39,434 nucleotides of DNA, taken from IMG/VR virus record IMGVR_UViG_2541047689_000010. One strand, given 5' to 3'. This stretch comes from a virus (taxonomy: Duplodnaviria > Heunggongvirae > Uroviricota > Caudoviricetes). Each line of letters starts with the position of its first letter. The stretch's first letter is position 1. The notes beneath the pieces were generated by a model, which had not been told where the DNA came from, searched no databases, and saw only the letters and a list, made by a program, of their open reading frames with translations. Below are positions 1 through 37,346 of this stretch, in pieces. A program made the translations under genes and the position numbers.

Positions 1-516
1 ATGAAATTTAAAAAATGTCTTCTGCCTGTGGCAATGTTAGCGTCATTCACTCTGGCAGGATGCCAGTCAAATGCTGATGATCATGCCGCCGATGTTTATC
101 AAACCGATCAACTGAATACCAAACAAGAAACTAAAACCGTTAATATTATTTCCATTCTTCCCGCAAAAGTTGCCGTAGACAACGCCCAAAATAAACGGAA
201 CGCACAAGCCTTCGGCGCGCTTATTGGCGCTGTCGCTGGCGGTGTTATCGGCCACAACGTCGGGTCTGGCAGCAATTCCGGAACGACGGCAGGTGCAGTT
301 GGCGGCGGAGCTGTAGGCGCGGCAGCGGGTTCTATGGTGAATGATAAAACCTTAGTGGAAGGTGTTTCTTTAACATATAAGGAAGGCACCAAAGTGTATA
401 CCTCCACCCAAGTGGGTAAAGAGTGCCAGTTTACGACAGGTTTAGCCGTTGTTATTACCACGACGTATAACGAAACGCGTATTCAGCCAAATACCAAATG
501 TCCTGAAAAGAGCTAA
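1..516 (+). CDS. Putative exported lipoprotein with Gly/Ala-rich (glycine-zipper-like) segment; host flank or phage moron
   Basis: ATG at position 1; N-terminal signal peptide ending in lipobox LAGC; Gly/Ala-rich stretch GALIGAVAGGVIGHNVG...AVGGGAVGAAAG typical of small outer-membrane lipoproteins. Family assignment is by composition only. Confidence 0.55.
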   Translation: MKFKKCLLPVAMLASFTLAGCQSNADDHAADVYQTDQLNTKQETKTVNIISILPAKVAVDNAQNKRNAQAFGALIGAVAGGVIGHNVGSGSNSGTTAGAVGGGAVGAAAGSMVNDKTLVEGVSLTYKEGTKVYTSTQVGKECQFTTGLAVVITTTYNETRIQPNTKCPEKS

Positions 517-6572: not shown

Positions 6573-6838
6573 TTTACATCGCACTCCTCTTGTGCCATAG
6601 TAATCGGGCACTGGCAAAATCCAGTGCCGGGATTGGTCTCCCGGATTACTACAGAGGCACATATGCCGCATAAGCGGTTTTTTTATGTGTAAAGCGCACC
6701 TATTCTATGGTGGGCTGTGTGGGGGCACCGAAAGGTGCGCCGGGTTCCTTTGTAGCCGGTAAGACCAACTCTGCACAGTTCACCACCATCTGATTGGTCT
6801 CAGCGGTGGTGATTAACCTAACTACAAAGGTGATCGCC

Positions 6839-7531
6839 ATGAATACCAAACCTTCCATCTTTTCCTTTGAGTCATCCTGCCAGATCCGTATGTTCATGAT
6901 TGACGGAGAACCTTGGTTTGTCACCAAAGATGTGTGCAATGCTTTGAATATTGATGTTACACAAGCGAGAAAACTTGATAAAAAAGGCTGGAACAAAAAG
7001 GGGCTGTATTCAATACAGACCCCTGGTGGAATACAAGAACTATCCATCGTTTCAGAATCAGGTCTCTACATCCTTATTCTGCGTTGCAAAGAGGCAATGA
7101 CAGAGGGAACGAGAGCATTCAGATTTCTTGAATGGGTTACAGGTGAGGTTCTTCCTCAGATCCGCCGCACCGGAAGTTACATTAAAAACTCGCTCCCGCA
7201 GGAAGAACGCATAAAGATGGTTGCCGACCAGGTAGCCAACGCCACGGCGTCAGCAGTAATGCAGGCGATGAAGATAGAGAACAAAACCTACAGTGCCCCG
7301 CTGAAGCCCGGCTACCGCAGCCTGATTCACTCGCCGTCTGGTGTTCTCGGCCTGACGGAGAACTCACTGCTGATGAATCTGCTGAACCAGTTACAGGAAG
7401 ACGGGCACGACGTATCGGGCGCGGCGGCGGAGCTGACCACCATGTTCTGCTACATCGTCGGTGTGAGTAAATGCCTGCGTGATATCCAGACGCACGCGGA
7501 GTACATCAACGACAAGGCTGGGTTCTTCTGA
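6839..7531 (+). CDS. Antirepressor with N-terminal Bro-N domain
   Basis: Start at ATG (MNTKPSIF...) with SD AAGGTGA; N-terminus FESSCQIRMFMIDGEPWFVTKDVCNALNI is typical of Bro-N/phage antirepressor domains; followed by hairpin GGCACATGGATGTGCC plus T-rich tail. Confidence 0.75.
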   Translation: MNTKPSIFSFESSCQIRMFMIDGEPWFVTKDVCNALNIDVTQARKLDKKGWNKKGLYSIQTPGGIQELSIVSESGLYILILRCKEAMTEGTRAFRFLEWVTGEVLPQIRRTGSYIKNSLPQEERIKMVADQVANATASAVMQAMKIENKTYSAPLKPGYRSLIHSPSGVLGLTENSLLMNLLNQLQEDGHDVSGAAAELTTMFCYIVGVSKCLRDIQTHAEYINDKAGFF

Positions 7532-7848: not shown

Positions 7849-8714
7849 TGTTGCTAGCTCTTCTAATTATCCCAATCCTGGTTAGCGGTTATATTATGAT
7901 AACCGCTAACCAGTATCATTATTTCCGTTTATACCGACACGAAGGCCAGCTTCTTTATATGAAAGTAGCGGCACTAGGTACATATTGCCTTGTTGCATCA
8001 GTAATAATTGCAGCCGCTATAAAATATAAATGGCCTGATTTTCACCTAGTTCACGATATGGTGGAAACTTTTAATGTAACATCAAAACCAGAAACAGATA
8101 GAATTTACATGTGGCTGCTTCTTCTCTCAGCCACATCCATTTGCTTCTCTTTGTGTTATGTGTCTGTTGTGTGGGTGAAAGATTTTCTTCTTGGTTGTTT
8201 TTATAAACGTGATATTTACGAGCAAAAAACAGAGGCAATGAAGGCCAGAGTACTGCGAAAAACTTACTCGCAAGGTTCTTTAGACTTACTATTGCTTGAT
8301 GCTATTGAATCGGATCCTAAACGACCAATGCTGATTACTTTATCATCAAACAAAGTGTATGTTGGAATAATAAATGGTTCTGGTGAACCAACGGAAAATC
8401 AGGGTCCGCATCAGCACATATCTTTTGTTCCTTTAATGTCAGGATACAGGAACAAAGAAAACTTATCTGTCACATTCACTAATGCTTATCCAGGAGAAAT
8501 ACAGGTCAAGCGGACTGCAGCAATAAGAGGAATTAGCAGAAAGAAAGTGCCAGGACTTGAGATCATGGTGTCTATTGACGAAATAAGTTATATATCATGG
8601 TTTGATTTTGAAGTATATAAAGCAACAAATAACAAAGTAGAATCCAGGGGGCACGTTATTCGTGTTACCAAAAATGGAAGAAATATATATCAAAGAAATA
8701 GCAAAAAAGAATAG
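7848..8714 (+). CDS. Membrane protein with three N-terminal TM helices and a roughly 170-aa C-terminal soluble domain; unknown function (candidate exclusion/abortive-infection effector)
   Basis: GTG start with AAGGAAG SD; hydrophobic segments LLALLIIPILVSGYIMI, VAALGTYCLVASVIIAAAI, YMWLLLLSATSICFSLCYVSVVW; gene is visibly AT-rich compared with flanking phage genes; intrinsic terminator directly after the stop. Confidence 0.55.
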   Translation: MLLALLIIPILVSGYIMITANQYHYFRLYRHEGQLLYMKVAALGTYCLVASVIIAAAIKYKWPDFHLVHDMVETFNVTSKPETDRIYMWLLLLSATSICFSLCYVSVVWVKDFLLGCFYKRDIYEQKTEAMKARVLRKTYSQGSLDLLLLDAIESDPKRPMLITLSSNKVYVGIINGSGEPTENQGPHQHISFVPLMSGYRNKENLSVTFTNAYPGEIQVKRTAAIRGISRKKVPGLEIMVSIDEISYISWFDFEVYKATNNKVESRGHVIRVTKNGRNIYQRNSKKE

Positions 8715-8736
8715 CCCGCGCTGCGGGCTTTTTTGT
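8714..8736 (+). terminator. Intrinsic terminator
   Basis: GCCCGC-gct-GCGGGC followed by TTTTTTGT, starting at the stop codon of 7848-8714. Confidence 0.6.
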
Positions 8737-8770: not shown

Positions 8771-8798
8771 CGTTAAAAACAAGGCCGCGAAAGCGGCC
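8771..8798 (-). terminator. Intrinsic terminator (minus strand)
   Basis: Minus-strand GGCCGC-TTTC-GCGGCC followed by TTGTTTTTAACG; directly downstream of palindrome copy 1. Confidence 0.55.
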
Positions 8799-8799
8799 T

Positions 8800-8811
8800 G
8801 TGACATGTCAC
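8800..8811. repeat. Perfect 12-bp palindrome GTGACATGTCAC, copy 1 of 3
   Basis: Read directly; one nt from the stop codon of 8813-9263 and immediately before the terminator hairpin. Confidence 0.8.
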
Positions 8812-8812
8812 G

Positions 8813-9263
8813 CTACTTGCGAAATCTTTCTTTACCCTTCCAGCCAGTAGATGTTAGTTCAGGATGAATGGTTCCCAATATAAAGCCAACCATAGCGGAG
8901 CGAGGATCTTCTATTTTATCCGTTAATTCTTCGGCATAACTCACAGGCAACCAAGCAACAAGATCACCAATCCTCAGCTTTGGTCCTTTGCTGTAAGATG
9001 AATCGGCAATAACAAAAAATCCACCATCAGCTGAGCACACCTTCAGCATTGCCCTTTGTCTTCCAGAATCTAGCAAAACTGGCTGTTCCCCACTTGGACC
9101 AGGTATGATGATGGCTGGCATTGGTTTATTGGCTGAAAGGCTTGTGTCAAGATACTTACACGCATACTCAAAAGCTGAAAAGTTATCCTTAAAGATAAGA
9201 GGTTGAATTTTATTGCTAACCTCCTTACCACCGATTAATCTGTTGATCATCTTCTTGAACATA
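8813..9263 (-). CDS. Hypothetical protein (about 149 aa), unknown function
   Basis: Start taken at ATG (MFKKMINR...) with SD AGGTGA 5 nt upstream; lies in the AT-rich accessory block. Confidence 0.5.
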
Positions 9264-9274
9264 AAGGTCACCTA

Positions 9275-25495: not shown

Positions 25496-25572
25496 GTGGC
25501 ATTAGCTCAGTTGGACAGAGCAACCGCCTTCTAAGCGGTTGGTCGCAGGTTCGAATCCTGCATGCCACACCA
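25496..25572 (+). tRNA. tRNA-Arg (anticodon UCU, reads AGA)
   Basis: Manual cloverleaf: acceptor GTGGCAT/ATGCCAC, D-arm GCTC...GAGC, anticodon stem ACCGC/GCGGT with loop CTTCTAA, T-arm GCAGG-TTCGAAT-CCTGC, discriminator A and encoded CCA. Confidence 0.8.
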
Positions 25573-25770: not shown

Positions 25771-26127
25771 ATGAACGACCAGCAAATCGAAAAAGAAATC
25801 GTTGAGAAAGGCAAAACCGCTCCGCGAGTTACGCCTCAATATATCGAAAGCATCATTCTTGAAGAGCATTTCTTTACTGCTTATGACGGCATTCGTGCTG
25901 CCAATATGGGCGTTGGCGATTCATGGACAGCGCATAAATCTACAGACCTCCTGACTTTCTGCGTATTGGTACTGAAGAATGGCTTCACCGTCACCGGAGA
26001 GAGTGCCTGTGCAAGTCCGGAAAATTTTGATGCAGAAATTGGTCGGAAGATTGCCCGGCAGAATGCTGTAAACAAAATCTGGATGCTCGAAGGTTACTTG
26101 CTGAAGCAGAAGTTAAGCGAGCAATAA
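25771..26127 (+). CDS. Small conserved prophage protein (118 aa), unknown function; moron co-oriented with the tRNA
   Basis: ATG with SD AAGGTGAG; followed by palindrome copy 2 and an intrinsic terminator. Confidence 0.55.
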   Translation: MNDQQIEKEIVEKGKTAPRVTPQYIESIILEEHFFTAYDGIRAANMGVGDSWTAHKSTDLLTFCVLVLKNGFTVTGESACASPENFDAEIGRKIARQNAVNKIWMLEGYLLKQKLSEQ

Positions 26128-26131
26128 CACC

Positions 26132-26143
26132 GTGACATGTCAC
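26132..26143. repeat. Perfect 12-bp palindrome GTGACATGTCAC, copy 2 of 3
   Basis: Read directly; 4 nt after the stop of 25771-26127 and 4 nt before the terminator stem. Confidence 0.8.
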
Positions 26144-26147
26144 AAAC

Positions 26148-26174
26148 AGCCAGCCGATGAGCTGGCTTTGTTTT
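26148..26174 (+). terminator. Intrinsic terminator
   Basis: AGCCAGC-cgatga-GCTGGCT followed by TTGTTTT. Confidence 0.65.
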
Positions 26175-26217
26175 ATCCTCACCAGAGGATATCAACGACA
26201 TTATCCCCACCAGCGGA

Positions 26218-27693
26218 TTAAGCATAGGGATCGTAATCTGTGATGGCCTTGCCTTGCTGGTTCTGCTGACCGGGAATTCGCAGACGCTTCGACACAGGGA
26301 ACGCAAACGTCAGCAGTAGCGCATCGCCTTTACCAGGAGAACGCCCAAGCCGCTCTTTGATATCTTCCTTCGGTTCGATAACGATTTTACCGTCCACTCG
26401 AACTTTGTACTCTGCCGCCGACAGGTCGTCCGCTGTTTCATGGTCATCCAGCATGCCGCCAAGCCTCAGCCATGTCTTGCATGAGTTGAACATCTCCCCA
26501 CGCTTGTTGAGCATCTGCGGGTCAGTAGACGCGCCACCGAACGGAACAAGTTGCCATGTACGACCCCAGCCGTCACCGATTGACTTCAAACCGGTTCCGT
26601 AACCAAAGTCGATGAACACCGCGTCAGCCTGATACTGGTCTTCAAAGTCAGCGATACGCTTCGCCATAATCAGATCGTCGGTAGTCTTGTTTCCAGTCCA
26701 CAGCACCTTACTGTGTAGCCCCTGCCGCAGGTATATCACAGCGTCATCAACGCCGGAGTATGCCGGGTCAACGCCGATTATCACCGGAGCATGTGCAACC
26801 TGCGCAGCGGTTACCACCCGTTTTATTGCCTCGTCAGTAAGACCGGTAGGGATAAACTGCAATTCAGATGCATCAGGGAATATGCCACGCACACGGATTT
26901 TAACGAAGTCGCTGTCTTCCCCGTAGTCATCAACCCATTTCTGCAACTGCTGTTTGTTGGTACCTTCCACCGTCCGACTGTCAATCTGCGCAGTTTTCCA
27001 GCGGTGTTTATACTTGCGGAAACATTCACGGAAACGTCCGGTATTACGCGTCGGGTTTCCGAACGCCACCCAGATAATCTCAGTGTCTTCGTCCGTTAGC
27101 GCACCCTCGGCAACTTCCCACACCAGATCCGCAATGTTCGACGCTTCATCGAATACCACGATGATGCGTTTGCGCTCATTGTGTAATCCGGCGAATGCCT
27201 CAGTGTTGTGCTCAGACCAGGGGATTGCGTCAGCTCGCCACCGCTTGTCGTGCCCAGGGTCATTGCTGTACATCGCGGTAGCGGTACAGGTAAACCAGTC
27301 TTTCGTGATAGCAAGGTTCGACCACTTGATAATTTCCGGCCAAGTCTTCGTTCGTAGCTGGTTGTCGGTGTTGGCGGTCACCACGACCTTACAATCCTCG
27401 CAAGTGGACATGCCCCAGTTGATCAGCATTGAGATGAATGCGGATTTACCAATACCGTGACCAGAAGCGCGTGCCAGCATAAGCGGCTGATAGCGCGTCT
27501 CTGGATTCTGCAGGTGATCACGTATCTCTCGGAACGCATCAGCCTGCCACTGACGTGGGCCGGTGGCATGTGCCAGTTCAGTCCCCTCTTCCCCCCACGG
27601 GAACGCATAGAGGGCATAGCCAAGCGGATCGTGAGTGAACCCTGCAATATCTTCGATTAACTGCTCTTCAGGAGATAACACTGCATCTGTCAC
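26218..27693 (-). CDS. Terminase large subunit
   Basis: 491 aa; Walker A-like GHGIGKS; acidic Walker B-like IIVVFDEASN; nuclease-type C-terminal half; overlaps small-subunit gene. Confidence 0.85.
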   Translation of the reverse strand: MTDAVLSPEEQLIEDIAGFTHDPLGYALYAFPWGEEGTELAHATGPRQWQADAFREIRDHLQNPETRYQPLMLARASGHGIGKSAFISMLINWGMSTCEDCKVVVTANTDNQLRTKTWPEIIKWSNLAITKDWFTCTATAMYSNDPGHDKRWRADAIPWSEHNTEAFAGLHNERKRIIVVFDEASNIADLVWEVAEGALTDEDTEIIWVAFGNPTRNTGRFRECFRKYKHRWKTAQIDSRTVEGTNKQQLQKWVDDYGEDSDFVKIRVRGIFPDASELQFIPTGLTDEAIKRVVTAAQVAHAPVIIGVDPAYSGVDDAVIYLRQGLHSKVLWTGNKTTDDLIMAKRIADFEDQYQADAVFIDFGYGTGLKSIGDGWGRTWQLVPFGGASTDPQMLNKRGEMFNSCKTWLRLGGMLDDHETADDLSAAEYKVRVDGKIVIEPKEDIKERLGRSPGKGDALLLTFAFPVSKRLRIPGQQNQQGKAITDYDPYA

Positions 27694-28286
27694 TGATTAC
27701 CATCCTGACGTTCTTTGAGTCGCTTCCTGGCTGCCGCTATGCGATCAGCAATTGTCACATTCACATTAACATCCAGGCGCTCTTTGAACGCGTTGACGTC
27801 GACGTGCTTACCGATAAGCTCGAGGTTCTTCACCTTGTCAGGCCATTTAATTTTTTTGAGGATTGTCTCTATCGAATCCTCGTTCATGTTCATGATGGTC
27901 GATGACAGATCAAAGCCGCTAAGCGTAGTGCGCCAGATTTTCGGCCACTCGCGGATTGGCTTAAGGCTCCCATCGTCGTTGAGGATGTCGATCACGTCCA
28001 TCTGGTCGATCTCCACCAGGCGCATGAGAACGTAATCAGCACTGACGCGCATTCGTTTGTTGCGCTCCTCCATCAGCTCGGCAATCCGTTTTTGAATGCG
28101 TTCATCGCGCATCATGACACTGGCTTTAACTGCCGCTGTATTTGGGGAGAATCCTGCGTTAATCGCTGCCTGAGTCTGGTTTTCAGGCGTTTTGATGTAT
28201 GACTGGCAATAAGCCTCCTGCATTGCTGTTAGTGGCTTAAATTGCGTTGATTTGCGTTTATAGGTTTTAGGTTCAGCAGGCATCAT
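27690..28286 (-). CDS. Putative terminase small subunit
   Basis: Directly upstream of and overlapping the large terminase; start set at internal ATG because the longer track ORF would include an intrinsic terminator hairpin. Confidence 0.5.
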   Translation of the reverse strand: MMPAEPKTYKRKSTQFKPLTAMQEAYCQSYIKTPENQTQAAINAGFSPNTAAVKASVMMRDERIQKRIAELMEERNKRMRVSADYVLMRLVEIDQMDVIDILNDDGSLKPIREWPKIWRTTLSGFDLSSTIMNMNEDSIETILKKIKWPDKVKNLELIGKHVDVNAFKERLDVNVNVTIADRIAAARKRLKERQDGNQ

Positions 28287-28328
28287 AACCACCGTGGTAA
28301 TAGTTACCGTTGTGGTAATAGTACCATG

Positions 28329-28355
28329 CAAAATAAAGCCGCCATAGTTGGCGGC
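28329..28355 (-). terminator. Intrinsic terminator (minus strand) separating the early cluster from the packaging/late genes
   Basis: Minus-strand GCCGCC-AACTAT-GGCGGC followed by TTTATTTTG. Confidence 0.55.
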
Positions 28356-28396
28356 AGTATTCAAAACCCATCAAATTCATCATGCATAATCTACTC

Positions 28397-28408
28397 GTGA
28401 CATGTCAC
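28397..28408. repeat. Perfect 12-bp palindrome GTGACATGTCAC, copy 3 of 3
   Basis: Read directly; overlaps the TGA stop of 28405-28743. Confidence 0.8.
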
Positions 28409-28743
28409 ACTATTAATTTCGTTTCATGCCAGCCTTTAGTCACCCAGCATTGCGAGTCACCATTACACGGGCATGAATTAACGGGAACTCTCTCGCCGCA
28501 CTTACCGCAAAGTTTTCTGCTGATCGATTTTATACGCCCGCGCACACGTGCATCATCCTGGCGGATCAGCAGCGCGATGTACTCGGCCATTTCATAGGGA
28601 TCGCGACTAGGGCGCCGGGCGGCGCAGTTCCGCGCCAGCATTTCAATTTCCTGAGCATCAAGCACAATTTCCAGCTTACACACACCAGATGCAGCTTGTC
28701 TGGCTCTCTGAGCGGCTTTGCGCTCTGCTGCTGATTTAGCCAT
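28405..28743 (-). CDS. Cys-rich small protein (possible zinc-binding regulator; candidate late-gene regulator)
   Basis: Start at ATG (MAKSAAERK...); basic N-terminus; Cys cluster CGKCGERVPVNSCPCNGDSQC; last gene before the terminator and terminase genes. Function inferred from position only. Confidence 0.45.
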   Translation of the reverse strand: MAKSAAERKAAQRARQAASGVCKLEIVLDAQEIEMLARNCAARRPSRDPYEMAEYIALLIRQDDARVRGRIKSISRKLCGKCGERVPVNSCPCNGDSQCWVTKGWHETKLIV

Positions 28744-29017
28744 CAATATTTACCTTTATCGCGAACACCTTTACCGGTTTATCACCGAAGTGGGGATGTG
28801 TGATTGTCTTGATTTCATATCCGTCATACTGGACGTTAATTCTGCGGCTGGAGTCGTCGCGCTTCGGATATCCCTTTGTGATAATCAGGCGGTCATACTC
28901 CCGGAACATAATTCGCTTATTCCAGTAGTCATTACACAGGCGATACTCTTCCGTTTTCTCTCCGCGAATCATGGCATCGAAGTATTCACCTTTAACGGCA
29001 AGTTGCAGGTTAGCCAC
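28736..29017 (-). CDS. Hypothetical early protein (about 94 aa)
   Basis: GTG start preceded by AAGGAG at 6-nt spacing; longer TTG-initiated track ORF would overlap the upstream gene by 92 nt. Confidence 0.5.
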   Translation of the reverse strand: MANLQLAVKGEYFDAMIRGEKTEEYRLCNDYWNKRIMFREYDRLIITKGYPKRDDSSRRINVQYDGYEIKTITHPHFGDKPVKVFAIKVNIDG

Positions 29018-32782: not shown

Positions 32783-32983
32783 TCAGCTTGAATGTTGTGG
32801 GGAGGAATTAATCATGATCTGCTTAATCTCTGCCCTGATGCGACGGTTTGATTCCATAGTGCACTCAACACAGTGTCCGTTGTAAACCCAGCGTTCACTG
32901 TCATGTCCGTGCTTACATGGTTTTCCGGTGTAGTAGCGTTTAAGTCCGCGCTTTGCGGCATCAATACGTGTAATAATTTCCAT
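32783..32983 (-). CDS. Small Cys/His-containing protein at the cII-equivalent position; unknown function
   Basis: Start at internal ATG (MEIITRID...); motif CKHGHDSERWVYNGHCVEC. Confidence 0.4.
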   Translation of the reverse strand: MEIITRIDAAKRGLKRYYTGKPCKHGHDSERWVYNGHCVECTMESNRRIRAEIKQIMINSSPQHSS

Positions 32984-37046: not shown

Positions 37047-37346
37047 GTGAGAAAGTTAAGCCGACTTGAAAAATATCACATGAATAAGGTTTCAATGCGC
37101 AGTCCGTCAAAGATTGTCGCCGTTACTCCTGCGGCGATAGAGATCGAAAAACGCGCGATTGAAAGAGAGAAAAAAGGGCAATTCCGCATTGCCGCTCACC
37201 TTTGGCTTCAGTGTATGGATGTTGCTTCTGGTGATGTTGAACGTGCAAGGATCGCGGTTCGCAGGGACCAATGTATCACAAAAGGTAACGGCCTTCGCCG
37301 TGGCGACTATAGCGGCATAGGATGTTGTGGGGTGGTTTATGACTAA
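37047..37346 (+). CDS. PerC-like small transcriptional regulator (start uncertain; alternative ATG at 37080)
   Basis: Motif EKKGQFRIAAHLWLQC resembles the PerC-family signature from memory; weak. Confidence 0.4.
   Translation: MRKLSRLEKYHMNKVSMRSPSKIVAVTPAAIEIEKRAIEREKKGQFRIAAHLWLQCMDVASGDVERARIAVRRDQCITKGNGLRRGDYSGIGCCGVVYD

Follow-up and report, generated by a model that had tools for sequence, protein, structure and literature searches.

A predicted ribbon-helix-helix protein and its 12-bp palindrome at the early/late gene boundary of an epsilon15/phiV10-type phage

The Cys-rich gene between the early and the terminase genes

The DNA analysed here is the IMG/VR virus record IMGVR_UViG_2541047689_000010, and by "the window" we mean this whole stretch of 39,434 nucleotides. 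Judged from its sequence, the 39.4-kb window represents essentially the whole of a temperate podovirus of the epsilon15/phiV10 type (Uetakevirus), a group that includes serotype-converting phages as well as phages of pathogenic E. coli and Salmonella. A literature search yielded no paper describing how phages of this type (Uetakevirus/epsilon15) switch on their late genes. This report concerns a gene for a small Cys-rich protein, the palindrome that contains its stop codon and the intrinsic terminator T1 that follows, all of which lie directly in front of the terminase genes (Table 1). The minus strand of the window carries the early-right and the late genes. Behind a cro-like gene and a terminator, its early genes comprise lambda-type replication genes (DnaT/HTH and Phage_lambda_P), Ea22-like genes and other small genes; they are followed by the Cys-rich gene, the genes of the small and large terminase subunits (TerS and TerL), the structural genes, the tailspike gene and the lysis genes. 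The 2-kb stretch around the Cys-rich gene shares ~96% identity with Escherichia phage vB_EcoP_PAS61 and is also close to TL-2011b, phiV10 and the O157 typing phages. TerS starts with an ATG at 28286 or 28283, 44–47 nt past the T-tract of T1. An earlier reading of the locus, made from the sequence alone (the sequence-only reading), had proposed a late-gene switch composed of these parts, and its description of the gene, its basic N-terminus and cysteine cluster, the palindrome at the stop codon, the terminator and the TerS start just beyond it agrees with our results.

Two start codons are available to the Cys-rich gene, a TTG at 28746 that gives 113 amino acids (aa) and an ATG at 28743 that gives 112 aa. 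The latter is the length of nearly all homologues, which start with MAKS. The N-terminus is basic, and cysteines occupy positions 22, 40, 79, 82, 91, 93 and 99, the last five forming the cluster C79-x2-C82 ... C91-x-C93-x5-C99 (C-x2-C-x8-C-x-C-x5-C). No match to the 112-aa protein was found in Pfam, NCBIfam or the sequences of the PDB. It belongs to PHROG 536, which bears the generic label "transcriptional regulator", and its family forms 772 clusters when grouped at 90% identity and is represented by 148 sequences at 50%, nearly all of them named "hypothetical protein"; no paper describing a PHROG 536-type family was found in the literature search. In an alignment of 55 diverse family members, a 10-sequence subset of which was used to search for related loci, C79 and C82 are invariant, C99, P87, G95, R8 and R13 are near-invariant, and a further cysteine at about position 91 is mobile.

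Fold prediction, which the sequence-only reading had named as a check, gave a confident model when AlphaFold2 was run on the 55-member alignment (pLDDT 91). The model consists of a helix at residues 5–19, an unassigned stretch at 22–29, helices at 30–42 and 52–75, a small knuckle and a last helix, and it conforms to the ribbon-helix-helix (RHH) class as defined by a beta-strand, helix A, helix B and a dimerising fold. The protein is accordingly predicted to be an RHH DNA binder with an Arg-rich N-terminal helix (5–19), an RHH core (~22–75) and a C-terminal zinc knuckle, for which C79, C82, C91/C93 and C99 are available and behind which a short C-terminal helix follows. For this protein, we infer the binding of DNA and of zinc, as well as a possible contact with RNA polymerase and the direction in which it acts.

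A cryptic, diverged late regulator of the Q or the Ogr/Delta family would be suggested only by the position upstream of the late genes, the cysteines and the terminator, and we regard this explanation as effectively refuted. The Pfam families recorded for the 55 homologues in the alignment do not include Q, and no resemblance to the Q fold was detected. The Ogr_Delta motif has the form C-x2-C-x22-C-x4-C; the 112-aa protein has no Pfam Ogr_Delta match, and its cysteine spacing differs. The likeness to a zinc-finger late activator seen by the sequence-only reading is not supported either: there is no relation to Ogr-type activators in sequence or fold, and the DNA-binding part models as RHH.

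A 12-bp palindrome linked to the gene family

The palindrome at the stop codon, GTGACATGTCAC, occurs as an exact 12-mer in three copies in the window (s1, s2 and s3, the last being the copy at the Cys-rich gene), where 0.0023 would be expected from base composition. All three are conserved in PAS61, and an equivalent of s1 is also present in other IMG/VR contigs. In its general form, GTGAC-NN-GTCAC, the palindrome was found in 85 of 86 loci (L001–L086; 80 IMG/VR loci of close relatives and six stretches from phage records), and the single exception ends at the stop codon. The linkage extends well beyond these relatives. Exact sites number 35 (~0.5 expected) over 507 kb from 27 loci of 27 bacterial species, including Citrobacter, Klebsiella, Pantoea, Erwinia, Xenorhabdus, Serratia and Yersinia; 21 of these 27 loci have a site −1 to +13 nt from the stop of the family gene. 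The site is retained at a protein identity of 35–40%, namely in phiKO2 (as GTGACTGGTCAC), ZF40, a Yersinia P2-like phage, Vibrio K308 (as GTGACACGTCAC, in three copies) and metagenomic phages. It is kept where the stop codon is a separate TAA (L044, ZF40), and even where the downstream gene or DNA is entirely different. The reverse test started from 80 IMG/VR stretches that had been retrieved by the 14-mer TGTGACATGTCACA alone: 20 of them encode the family protein, 12 of these with the site at its stop. Because of the gene–site linkage across homologues and the outcome of the reverse test, we consider it highly probable that GTGAC-N2-GTCAC is the operator of the 112-aa protein. Gene and site would form a portable two-part module of temperate phages in Enterobacterales and Vibrionales; the pair is present in hundreds of sequence clusters of enterobacterial and vibrio temperate phages and prophages, often in the position that Q occupies in lambda.

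Variation among the sites is confined to the two central bases of GTGAC-N2-GTCAC, and the arms are invariant. This is the signature of a DNA site that is read by a symmetric dimer and not that of an RNA hairpin; the expected reader would be either one such dimer or a pair of dimers, the centres of the two half-sites being 7 bp from each other. Alternatively, the protein could act on RNA like Mu Com or lambda N, with its Arg-rich helix or zinc knuckle bound to a GUGAC-NN-GUCAC hairpin of the transcript, and could either control translation of the next gene or be loaded onto the polymerase as N is at nut. The site does end its own gene, often directly before the Shine–Dalgarno sequence of the next one, which is how Com and mom are arranged; the N-terminal helix is rich in arginine, and lambda nutR likewise lies after cro and before tR1, with the 14-mer recurring directly after a cro-like gene. 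However, invariant arms around a variable centre, with no compensatory changes, are the reverse of what is found in a recognised RNA hairpin, the stem would have 4 bp at most, and the predicted fold is that of a binder of double-stranded DNA. Moreover, s1 and s2 precede terminators, not genes. An RNA-level regulator therefore seems very improbable to us.

Some occurrences of the palindrome elsewhere deserve mention in their own right. Tandem palindromes are present in L130/L131 (~7475–7509) and in L089 (11675–11719); one of the pairs consists of two exact copies 23 bp apart and the other of an exact and a 1-mismatch copy 33 bp apart, which suggests cooperative binding at some targets. The 14-mer TGTGACATGTCACA is also carried by P4-type satellite-looking elements with an integrase and an alpha-type primase (L143, L150, L155, L160 and similar IMG/VR loci). 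No family gene was found within the fetched stretches of these elements, which may be satellites that sense the protein of their helper. In L137, L138, L152, L156 and L169, finally, the 14-mer stands directly 3' of a cro-like gene beside a CI-like repressor gene, a nutR-like position, and follows TTGACTGT.

Terminators, site surroundings and entry into the late genes

T1, which was detected by terminator scan and by folding, begins 41 nt past s3. It has a 7-bp stem with six G–C pairs (28355–28338), its T-tract runs to 28330, and it qualifies as an intrinsic terminator; the 136-nt T1 region folds with −40.9 kcal/mol (z = −3.1). The moron terminator and T3 (Table 1) were detected likewise. In every close relative fetched, T1 lies directly upstream of TerS, at a distance of 23 to ~340 nt from the palindrome. 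Scanning detected no promoter in the 45 nt that separate T1 from the TerS start, and the relatives compared share none in the interval from palindrome to T1. The sequence-only reading, too, had been unable to define a late promoter with confidence. Since T1 lies upstream of TerS and no promoter was found between them, expression of TerS and TerL needs a polymerase that reads through T1. Neither early operon encodes a member of the Q, N, Ogr or Com families according to Pfam. A lambda-PR'-like −10 with a −10-like repeat is absent from the window, and the boxA-type nut signal GCTCTTTA occurs at chance level only and away from the early promoters.

The interval between palindrome and T1 differs among relatives. 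Sibling phages have a 70-codon gene (PHROG 1541) at this place, and the 41 nt of the window, ATGCATGATGAATTTGATGGGTTTTGA, are the start of this gene fused to its last six codons; a Citrobacter braakii prophage (L092) has 23 unrelated bases instead. The Cys-rich gene is thus the last early gene in the window, as the sequence-only reading had stated, but not in those siblings. A late promoter within this interval was considered and rejected. The candidate hexamers (GTGACA-18-CATGAT, TTAATA-17-TAGATT and an extended −10) are vestiges of a ribosome-binding site and start codon, because the bases in question are the beginning of the deleted 70-codon gene, and L092 lacks them. In addition, promoters that hold a palindrome in their spacer are rare among the sites as a whole.

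All three sites of the window have the same polarity, with a gene stop followed by the palindrome and then by an intrinsic terminator. At s3, the family gene is followed by the palindrome, 41 nt, T1 and TerS. At s2, a reverse-oriented moron is followed by 4 nt, the palindrome, another 4 nt and the moron terminator, whose hairpin also abuts the end of TerL. At s1, the open reading frame (ORF) 9271–8813 is followed by 1 nt, the palindrome and, without any spacing, terminator T3. Other prophages show this arrangement of TerL, hairpin, palindrome, 4 nt and moron stop as well, with no fewer than five unrelated morons among them, and all three sites coincide with points at which gene content differs among relatives. 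The palindromes also lie at hot spots of moron exchange and should be useful for annotating the mosaic boundaries of prophages. PHROG searches with the genes just 3' of the palindromes in five phages returned families of unknown function only. The palindrome is therefore not a local feature of a late promoter; it is predicted to be a repeated operator with three copies in the window, found also beside reverse-oriented morons.

Such surroundings raise the possibility of a roadblock or insulator, in which the protein at the palindromes would stop polymerase or help to terminate it at the boundaries of transcription units and, as a negative regulator, would reinforce the neighbouring terminators. 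The purpose might be to shield the late genes from convergent moron transcription or to delay late expression. Most RHH proteins are repressors, the sites stand at the 3' ends of units and directly against terminator hairpins, a hairpin followed by a protein site, as encountered from the opposite direction, could constitute a protein-assisted terminator, and two of the sites flank reverse-oriented modules. Nevertheless, this explanation appears unlikely to us. All of s3, s2 and s1 lie on the only visible transcription path to the essential late genes, and in K308-type phages a site is located inside the late operon, 15–19 nt upstream of the TerS start, where a stable block would stop the expression of the packaging genes. 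A protein that accumulates as infection proceeds would also have the wrong timing for a brake on late genes.

The reading that we favour, tentatively and without calling it probable, is that a site-bound RHH regulator governs the passage of RNA polymerase across the early/late boundary, most plausibly by read-through of T1, in a Q-like but non-homologous manner. Encoded at the end of the rightward early operon, on the minus strand of the window, the 112-aa protein would, once made, occupy three identical sites, each of them where a transcription unit ends in an intrinsic terminator. These sites would mark the boundaries between early operon and terminase genes, between terminase genes and reverse moron, and between the end of a late-strand gene and a reverse c4/ant-type module. 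The site-bound protein would then act on the passing RNA polymerase, which could run on into the late genes. In this phage, the action would be on the elongating polymerase rather than at a late promoter, and the protein would do the work of lambda Q or Pseudomonas AlpA with a different fold. Read-through of this kind would explain the position of the gene, the requirement for passing T1, the absence of another candidate regulator and the Q position of homologues, and the candidate late control would require one small protein, one 12-bp operator in three copies and one terminator to pass. It builds on what was observed above: the elements in the sequence, the fold as predicted, the statistical association between gene and site and the fact that T1 has to be passed. 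The late-switch function itself is what we infer, and only that. The regulator at the late switch that the sequence-only reading had envisaged remains credible in so far as the protein is a plausible DNA binder, T1 must be read through and the early operons hold no other Q, N, Ogr or Com.

More distant homologues bear on this question as well. In Vibrio phage K308 and in L117, L118, L120, L126 and L134, the family gene is the last early gene and is followed by a gap of 170–290 nt and then by holin/lysozyme and terminase genes. In K308, L117, L118, L120 and L134, this gap reads as a sigma70-type promoter with a second −10-like hexamer 6 nt past the first, to which GGTG or GGTT is attached, and then a leader hairpin ahead of a strong terminator, as exemplified by TTGACG-17-TATCGT-6-TATCGTGGTG and TTGAAA-17-TATGTT-6-TATTGTGGTT. 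L126 has the TATCGTGG motif and the terminator, but its −35/−10 register could not be fitted. The layout of these cassettes matches the lambda order Q-PR'-tR'-S, in which TTGACT-17-TAAATT-6-AACGATGGGTT is followed by tR'. On the contigs that have PR'-like cassettes after the family gene, no Q family is recorded; for the factor that would be missing there, the family protein suggests itself as the candidate. The Q-like arrangement proposed by the sequence-only reading is in this sense borne out by distant homologues in Q position upstream of PR'-like cassettes, although it does not extend to any relation with Q in sequence or fold.

Some side observations concern the same cassettes. PR'-like cassettes without a recognisable Q gene occur in L088 (33336–33495) as well as in L117, L118, L120 and L134. 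Their −35/−10 spacers contain conserved motifs specific for subgroups, TGGCGGTT or AGGGTTTT, which could be a binding element for some factor. In the window, the last 10 bases before the TerS ATG, CACGGTGGTT, are identical to a motif just past the −10 of the PR'-like late promoter of L134; this could reflect a Shine–Dalgarno sequence and chance, or a shared signal.

Instead of acting on elongation, the protein could be a classical promoter activator of the Ogr, Mu C or RinA type, with the palindrome as upstream activating site of late or moron promoters. The family gene is found just upstream of late operons in several phage groups, the P4-like satellite-looking elements with the 14-mer might use the activator of a helper as P4 uses Ogr, and the weak TTAATA-17-TAGATT promoter would hold the palindrome in its spacer. 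However, the hexamers after s3 are vestigial and missing in L092, and the palindrome falls into a promoter spacer in 8 of 122 site-orientations only. There is no conserved promoter at a fixed distance: from the palindrome to the PR'-like −35 it varies from 48 to ~97 bp, and in many loci the site is merely 9–19 nt away from the next start codon. We consider such an activator improbable.

Several findings weigh against read-through of T1 as the function of the protein. The closeness of palindrome and T1 in the window is secondary, having arisen by the deletion described above. At s2, the palindrome precedes the terminator in the direction of the moron only and not in that of the late transcript, so that an antiterminator acting there would promote antisense transcription into TerL. 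Terminator-like hairpins lie within 60 nt of 21 of the 59 unique sites (the background being 4.7% per strand for randomly chosen positions and 9.3% for the ends of ORFs), but this enrichment is driven mainly by epsilon15-like elements and is weak elsewhere, and the sites are not phylogenetically independent. Where PR'-like promoters are present, four loci have the palindrome 48–76 bp and K308 has it ~97 bp upstream of the −35, which is unlike a Q-binding element, and in L134 it is not nearby. Other regulators coexist with the family gene: in phiKO2, a lambda-Q-like gp38 is present as well, with an annotated late promoter at a distance of 1.9 kb, and in the Yersinia P2-like phage another regulator gene occupies the Ogr position. 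NinB comes after the family gene in ZF40 and in a Pantoea stewartii prophage; in prophages of Pantoea and Serratia, the family gene is followed by an xis-like gene and int, and in two further groups it lies in mid-operon. Given this coexistence with Q or Ogr and these placements, late-gene control is no universal role of the family. The read-through model leaves the orientation of s2 and the coexistence with Q or Ogr elsewhere unexplained.

Table 1. Coordinates of the genes, palindrome copies, terminators and other features of the window.
Feature	Position	Strand	Remarks
Gene for 112-aa Cys-rich protein	28405..28743	minus	ORF 28746/28743–28405
Palindrome copy s3, GTGACATGTCAC, predicted operator	28397..28408	–	contains the TGA stop of the gene (28407–28405)
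Palindrome copy s2	26132..26143	–	between stop of reverse-oriented moron and moron terminator
Palindrome copy s1	8800..8811	–	1 nt past stop of ORF 9271–8813, abutting T3
Intrinsic terminator T1, GCCGCC-aactat-GGCGGC + TTTATTTT	28330..28355	minus	terminator scan and folding
Vestigial mini-ORF MHDEFDGF*	28361..28387	minus	remnant of deleted 70-aa gene; comparison with L010, L015
Direct repeat CTATTACCAC, two copies, period 18	28294..28321	minus	between T1 and TerS start; conserved in relatives
Small terminase subunit gene TerS, first late gene	27690..28283	minus	Pfam Terminase_2, 1e-29; TL-2011b/PAS61 annotation
Large terminase subunit gene TerL	26218..27693	minus	annotation in relatives TL-2011b, PAS61
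Reverse-oriented moron, Phage_gp49_66 family	25771..26127	plus	ends 4 nt before s2
Moron terminator, AGCCAGC-cgatga-GCTGGCT + TTGTTTTA	26148..26175	plus	hairpin follows TerL on other strand
Late-strand ORF, PHROG 9944	8813..9271	minus	stop precedes s1
Intrinsic terminator T3, AGGCCGC-tttc-GCGGCCT + TGTTTTT	8775..8799	minus	immediately after s1
Promoter-like site	33418–33390	minus	upstream of cro-like gene
Terminator after cro-like gene	33112–33093	minus	

The reverse-oriented block that faces s1 contains matches to Rfam isrK (6608–6684) and C4 antisense RNA (6703–6790) on the plus strand, opposite to the late strand. It corresponds to a c4-icd-ant (immI-like) antirepressor control module of the P1/P7 type and ends at a bidirectional terminator (8713–8729) beside s1. 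In phiKO2, too, a palindrome is located just upstream of an icd/antA/antB operon (L135, 32783). Morons with LexA-box promoters (TACTGT-N8-ACAGTA) are inserted directly 3' of the palindrome, between the family gene and TerS, in L090, L091 and L095; the moron gene is umuD-like in L091 and L095 and encodes 85 aa in L090. In the window, a tRNA-Arg gene (anticodon UCU; 25496–25572, plus strand) is part of the reverse-oriented block between TerL and the portal gene and is surrounded by ~600 nt of apparently non-coding DNA. A PerC-family transcriptional activator is encoded in the leftward early operon (37047–37346, plus strand) and a TraT-like or glycine-zipper lipoprotein at the left end of the window (1–516, plus strand), both of them probable lysogenic-conversion or moron genes. 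A 66-aa ORF (32783–32983, minus strand) located 3' of the post-cro terminator shows a CxH...CxxC pattern, belongs to PHROG 1081 and occupies the position of lambda cII.

Comparison with known systems

The site recalls E. coli matS, GTGAC-RNY-GTCAC, a 13-bp sequence bound by the RHH protein MatP (PMC3116907). The half-sites GTGAC...GTCAC are identical, both proteins have an RHH core (that of the 112-aa protein being predicted) and the taxonomic range of the hosts matches; the phage site of 12 bp, however, is one central base shorter. The 13-bp matS is absent from the window even if one mismatch is allowed, which agrees with a report that prophages avoid matS (PMC3603311). This identity of half-sites at a spacing one base shorter raises the question of cross-talk with, or insulation from, the Ter-organising system of the host. 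The binder might, like MatP, serve DNA architecture by bridging or marking the phage chromosome, its sites being one base shorter than matS to keep host and phage orthogonal, and it might thereby contribute to packaging, to segregation of plasmid-like prophages or to evasion of host SMC complexes (MukBEF, Wadjet). We hold this role to be distinctly unlikely. Homology to MatP was rejected, since the family profile reached an hhalign probability of only 0.2% against E. coli MatP (MatP sequence verified against PDB 4D8J), which leaves fold class and half-site as the only common traits. The four-helix bundle and the coiled coil of MatP are absent from the 112-aa protein, one to three sites per genome are few for an organising system, and the fact that they regularly lie at gene ends beside terminators points to transcription.

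Two far-reaching alternatives would go beyond these precedents, and even taken together they appear unlikely. One is a new class of elongation regulator, in which an RHH dimer on a 12-bp site within an operon or at its end is handed to the elongating polymerase without promoter or sigma-dependent pause and makes it read through terminators. The other would be a "matS minus one" system of phages, whose MatP-like binder is made orthogonal to the host by a one-base change in half-site spacing and would organise or protect the phage chromosome, for example against SMC-type complexes. If either were true, helper-dependent satellites with the same palindrome could be listening to the protein. We likewise doubt that the mechanism is categorically new. 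The class of RHH regulators and the logic of a terminator-gated late operon are already known; what appears to be undescribed is the combination of an RHH core and a zinc knuckle with a 12-bp operator that resembles matS and lies both at the stop of its own gene and at the ends of other units, and with the Q position before PR'-like cassettes. No paper containing the palindrome was found in the literature search.

The Arc and Mnt repressors of P22, omega, CopG and the antitoxin RHH repressors share the predicted fold, with a dimer or a dimer of dimers expected on a short symmetric operator. Omega heptads are spaced 7 bp, and the half-site centres of the family site are the same distance apart. 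In contrast to these repressors, the 112-aa protein has an additional Arg-rich helix at the N-terminus and a Cys knuckle at the C-terminus, and the family operator lies at the 3' end of the gene and at the ends of other units instead of over its own promoter. PhiPA1019 Gp53 is an Arc/AmrZ-like RHH protein without a zinc part; the paper on LF82 "Gally" deals with a phage whose regulators are of the P22 type (C2, Mnt, Roi) and has no bearing on this question. The knuckle may be compared with zinc fingers of the DksA/TraR type (including lambda Orf73), in which, as in the protein, a CxxCG..(L/I)P...C motif comes after a long helix. TraR and YbiI were the top matches in a profile search of PDB sequences (E 0.035–0.055), and comparison with DksA/TraR by hhalign gave a probability of 58%.

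P2 Ogr, P4 Delta and 186 B resemble the 112-aa protein in small size and in the presence of cysteines. Phage 186 carries B after gene A, and one family homologue likewise follows gene A in a P2-like phage, the one whose Ogr position is taken by a separate regulator gene. The TGT-N12-ACA sites at about −55 of late promoters that go with these regulators are, however, missing. Pseudomonas AlpA, a small DNA binder with a MerR-like helix-turn-helix, is a Q-like antiterminator that acts at a promoter-proximal pause and loads on RNA polymerase. It provides a precedent for a very small site-specific binder that is unrelated to Q and bypasses terminators, but the 112-aa protein is predicted to be RHH, and in this phage no promoter is adjacent.

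A functional parallel would be lambda Q with qut, PR' and tR' (also Q21 and Q82). In both cases the gene stands at the end of the early region, directly upstream of the terminator that blocks the late genes, and encodes a factor that binds (in the case of the 112-aa protein, is predicted to bind) a DNA site beside its own gene. In several other phage groups, the sequence of promoter, −10-like repeat 6 nt downstream and terminator after the family gene is a further common trait. There is, however, no similarity in sequence or fold between Q and the predicted RHH protein with its zinc knuckle. Moreover, the site in the window lacks a late promoter and a sigma-pause element and is present threefold per genome, the family palindrome in PR'-type loci lies far upstream of the promoter, and phiKO2 possesses both a family gene and a Q-like gene. 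Should the family protein nevertheless prove to be the antiterminator at PR'-like promoters, it would represent a further, structurally unrelated solution to the problem that lambda solves with Q.

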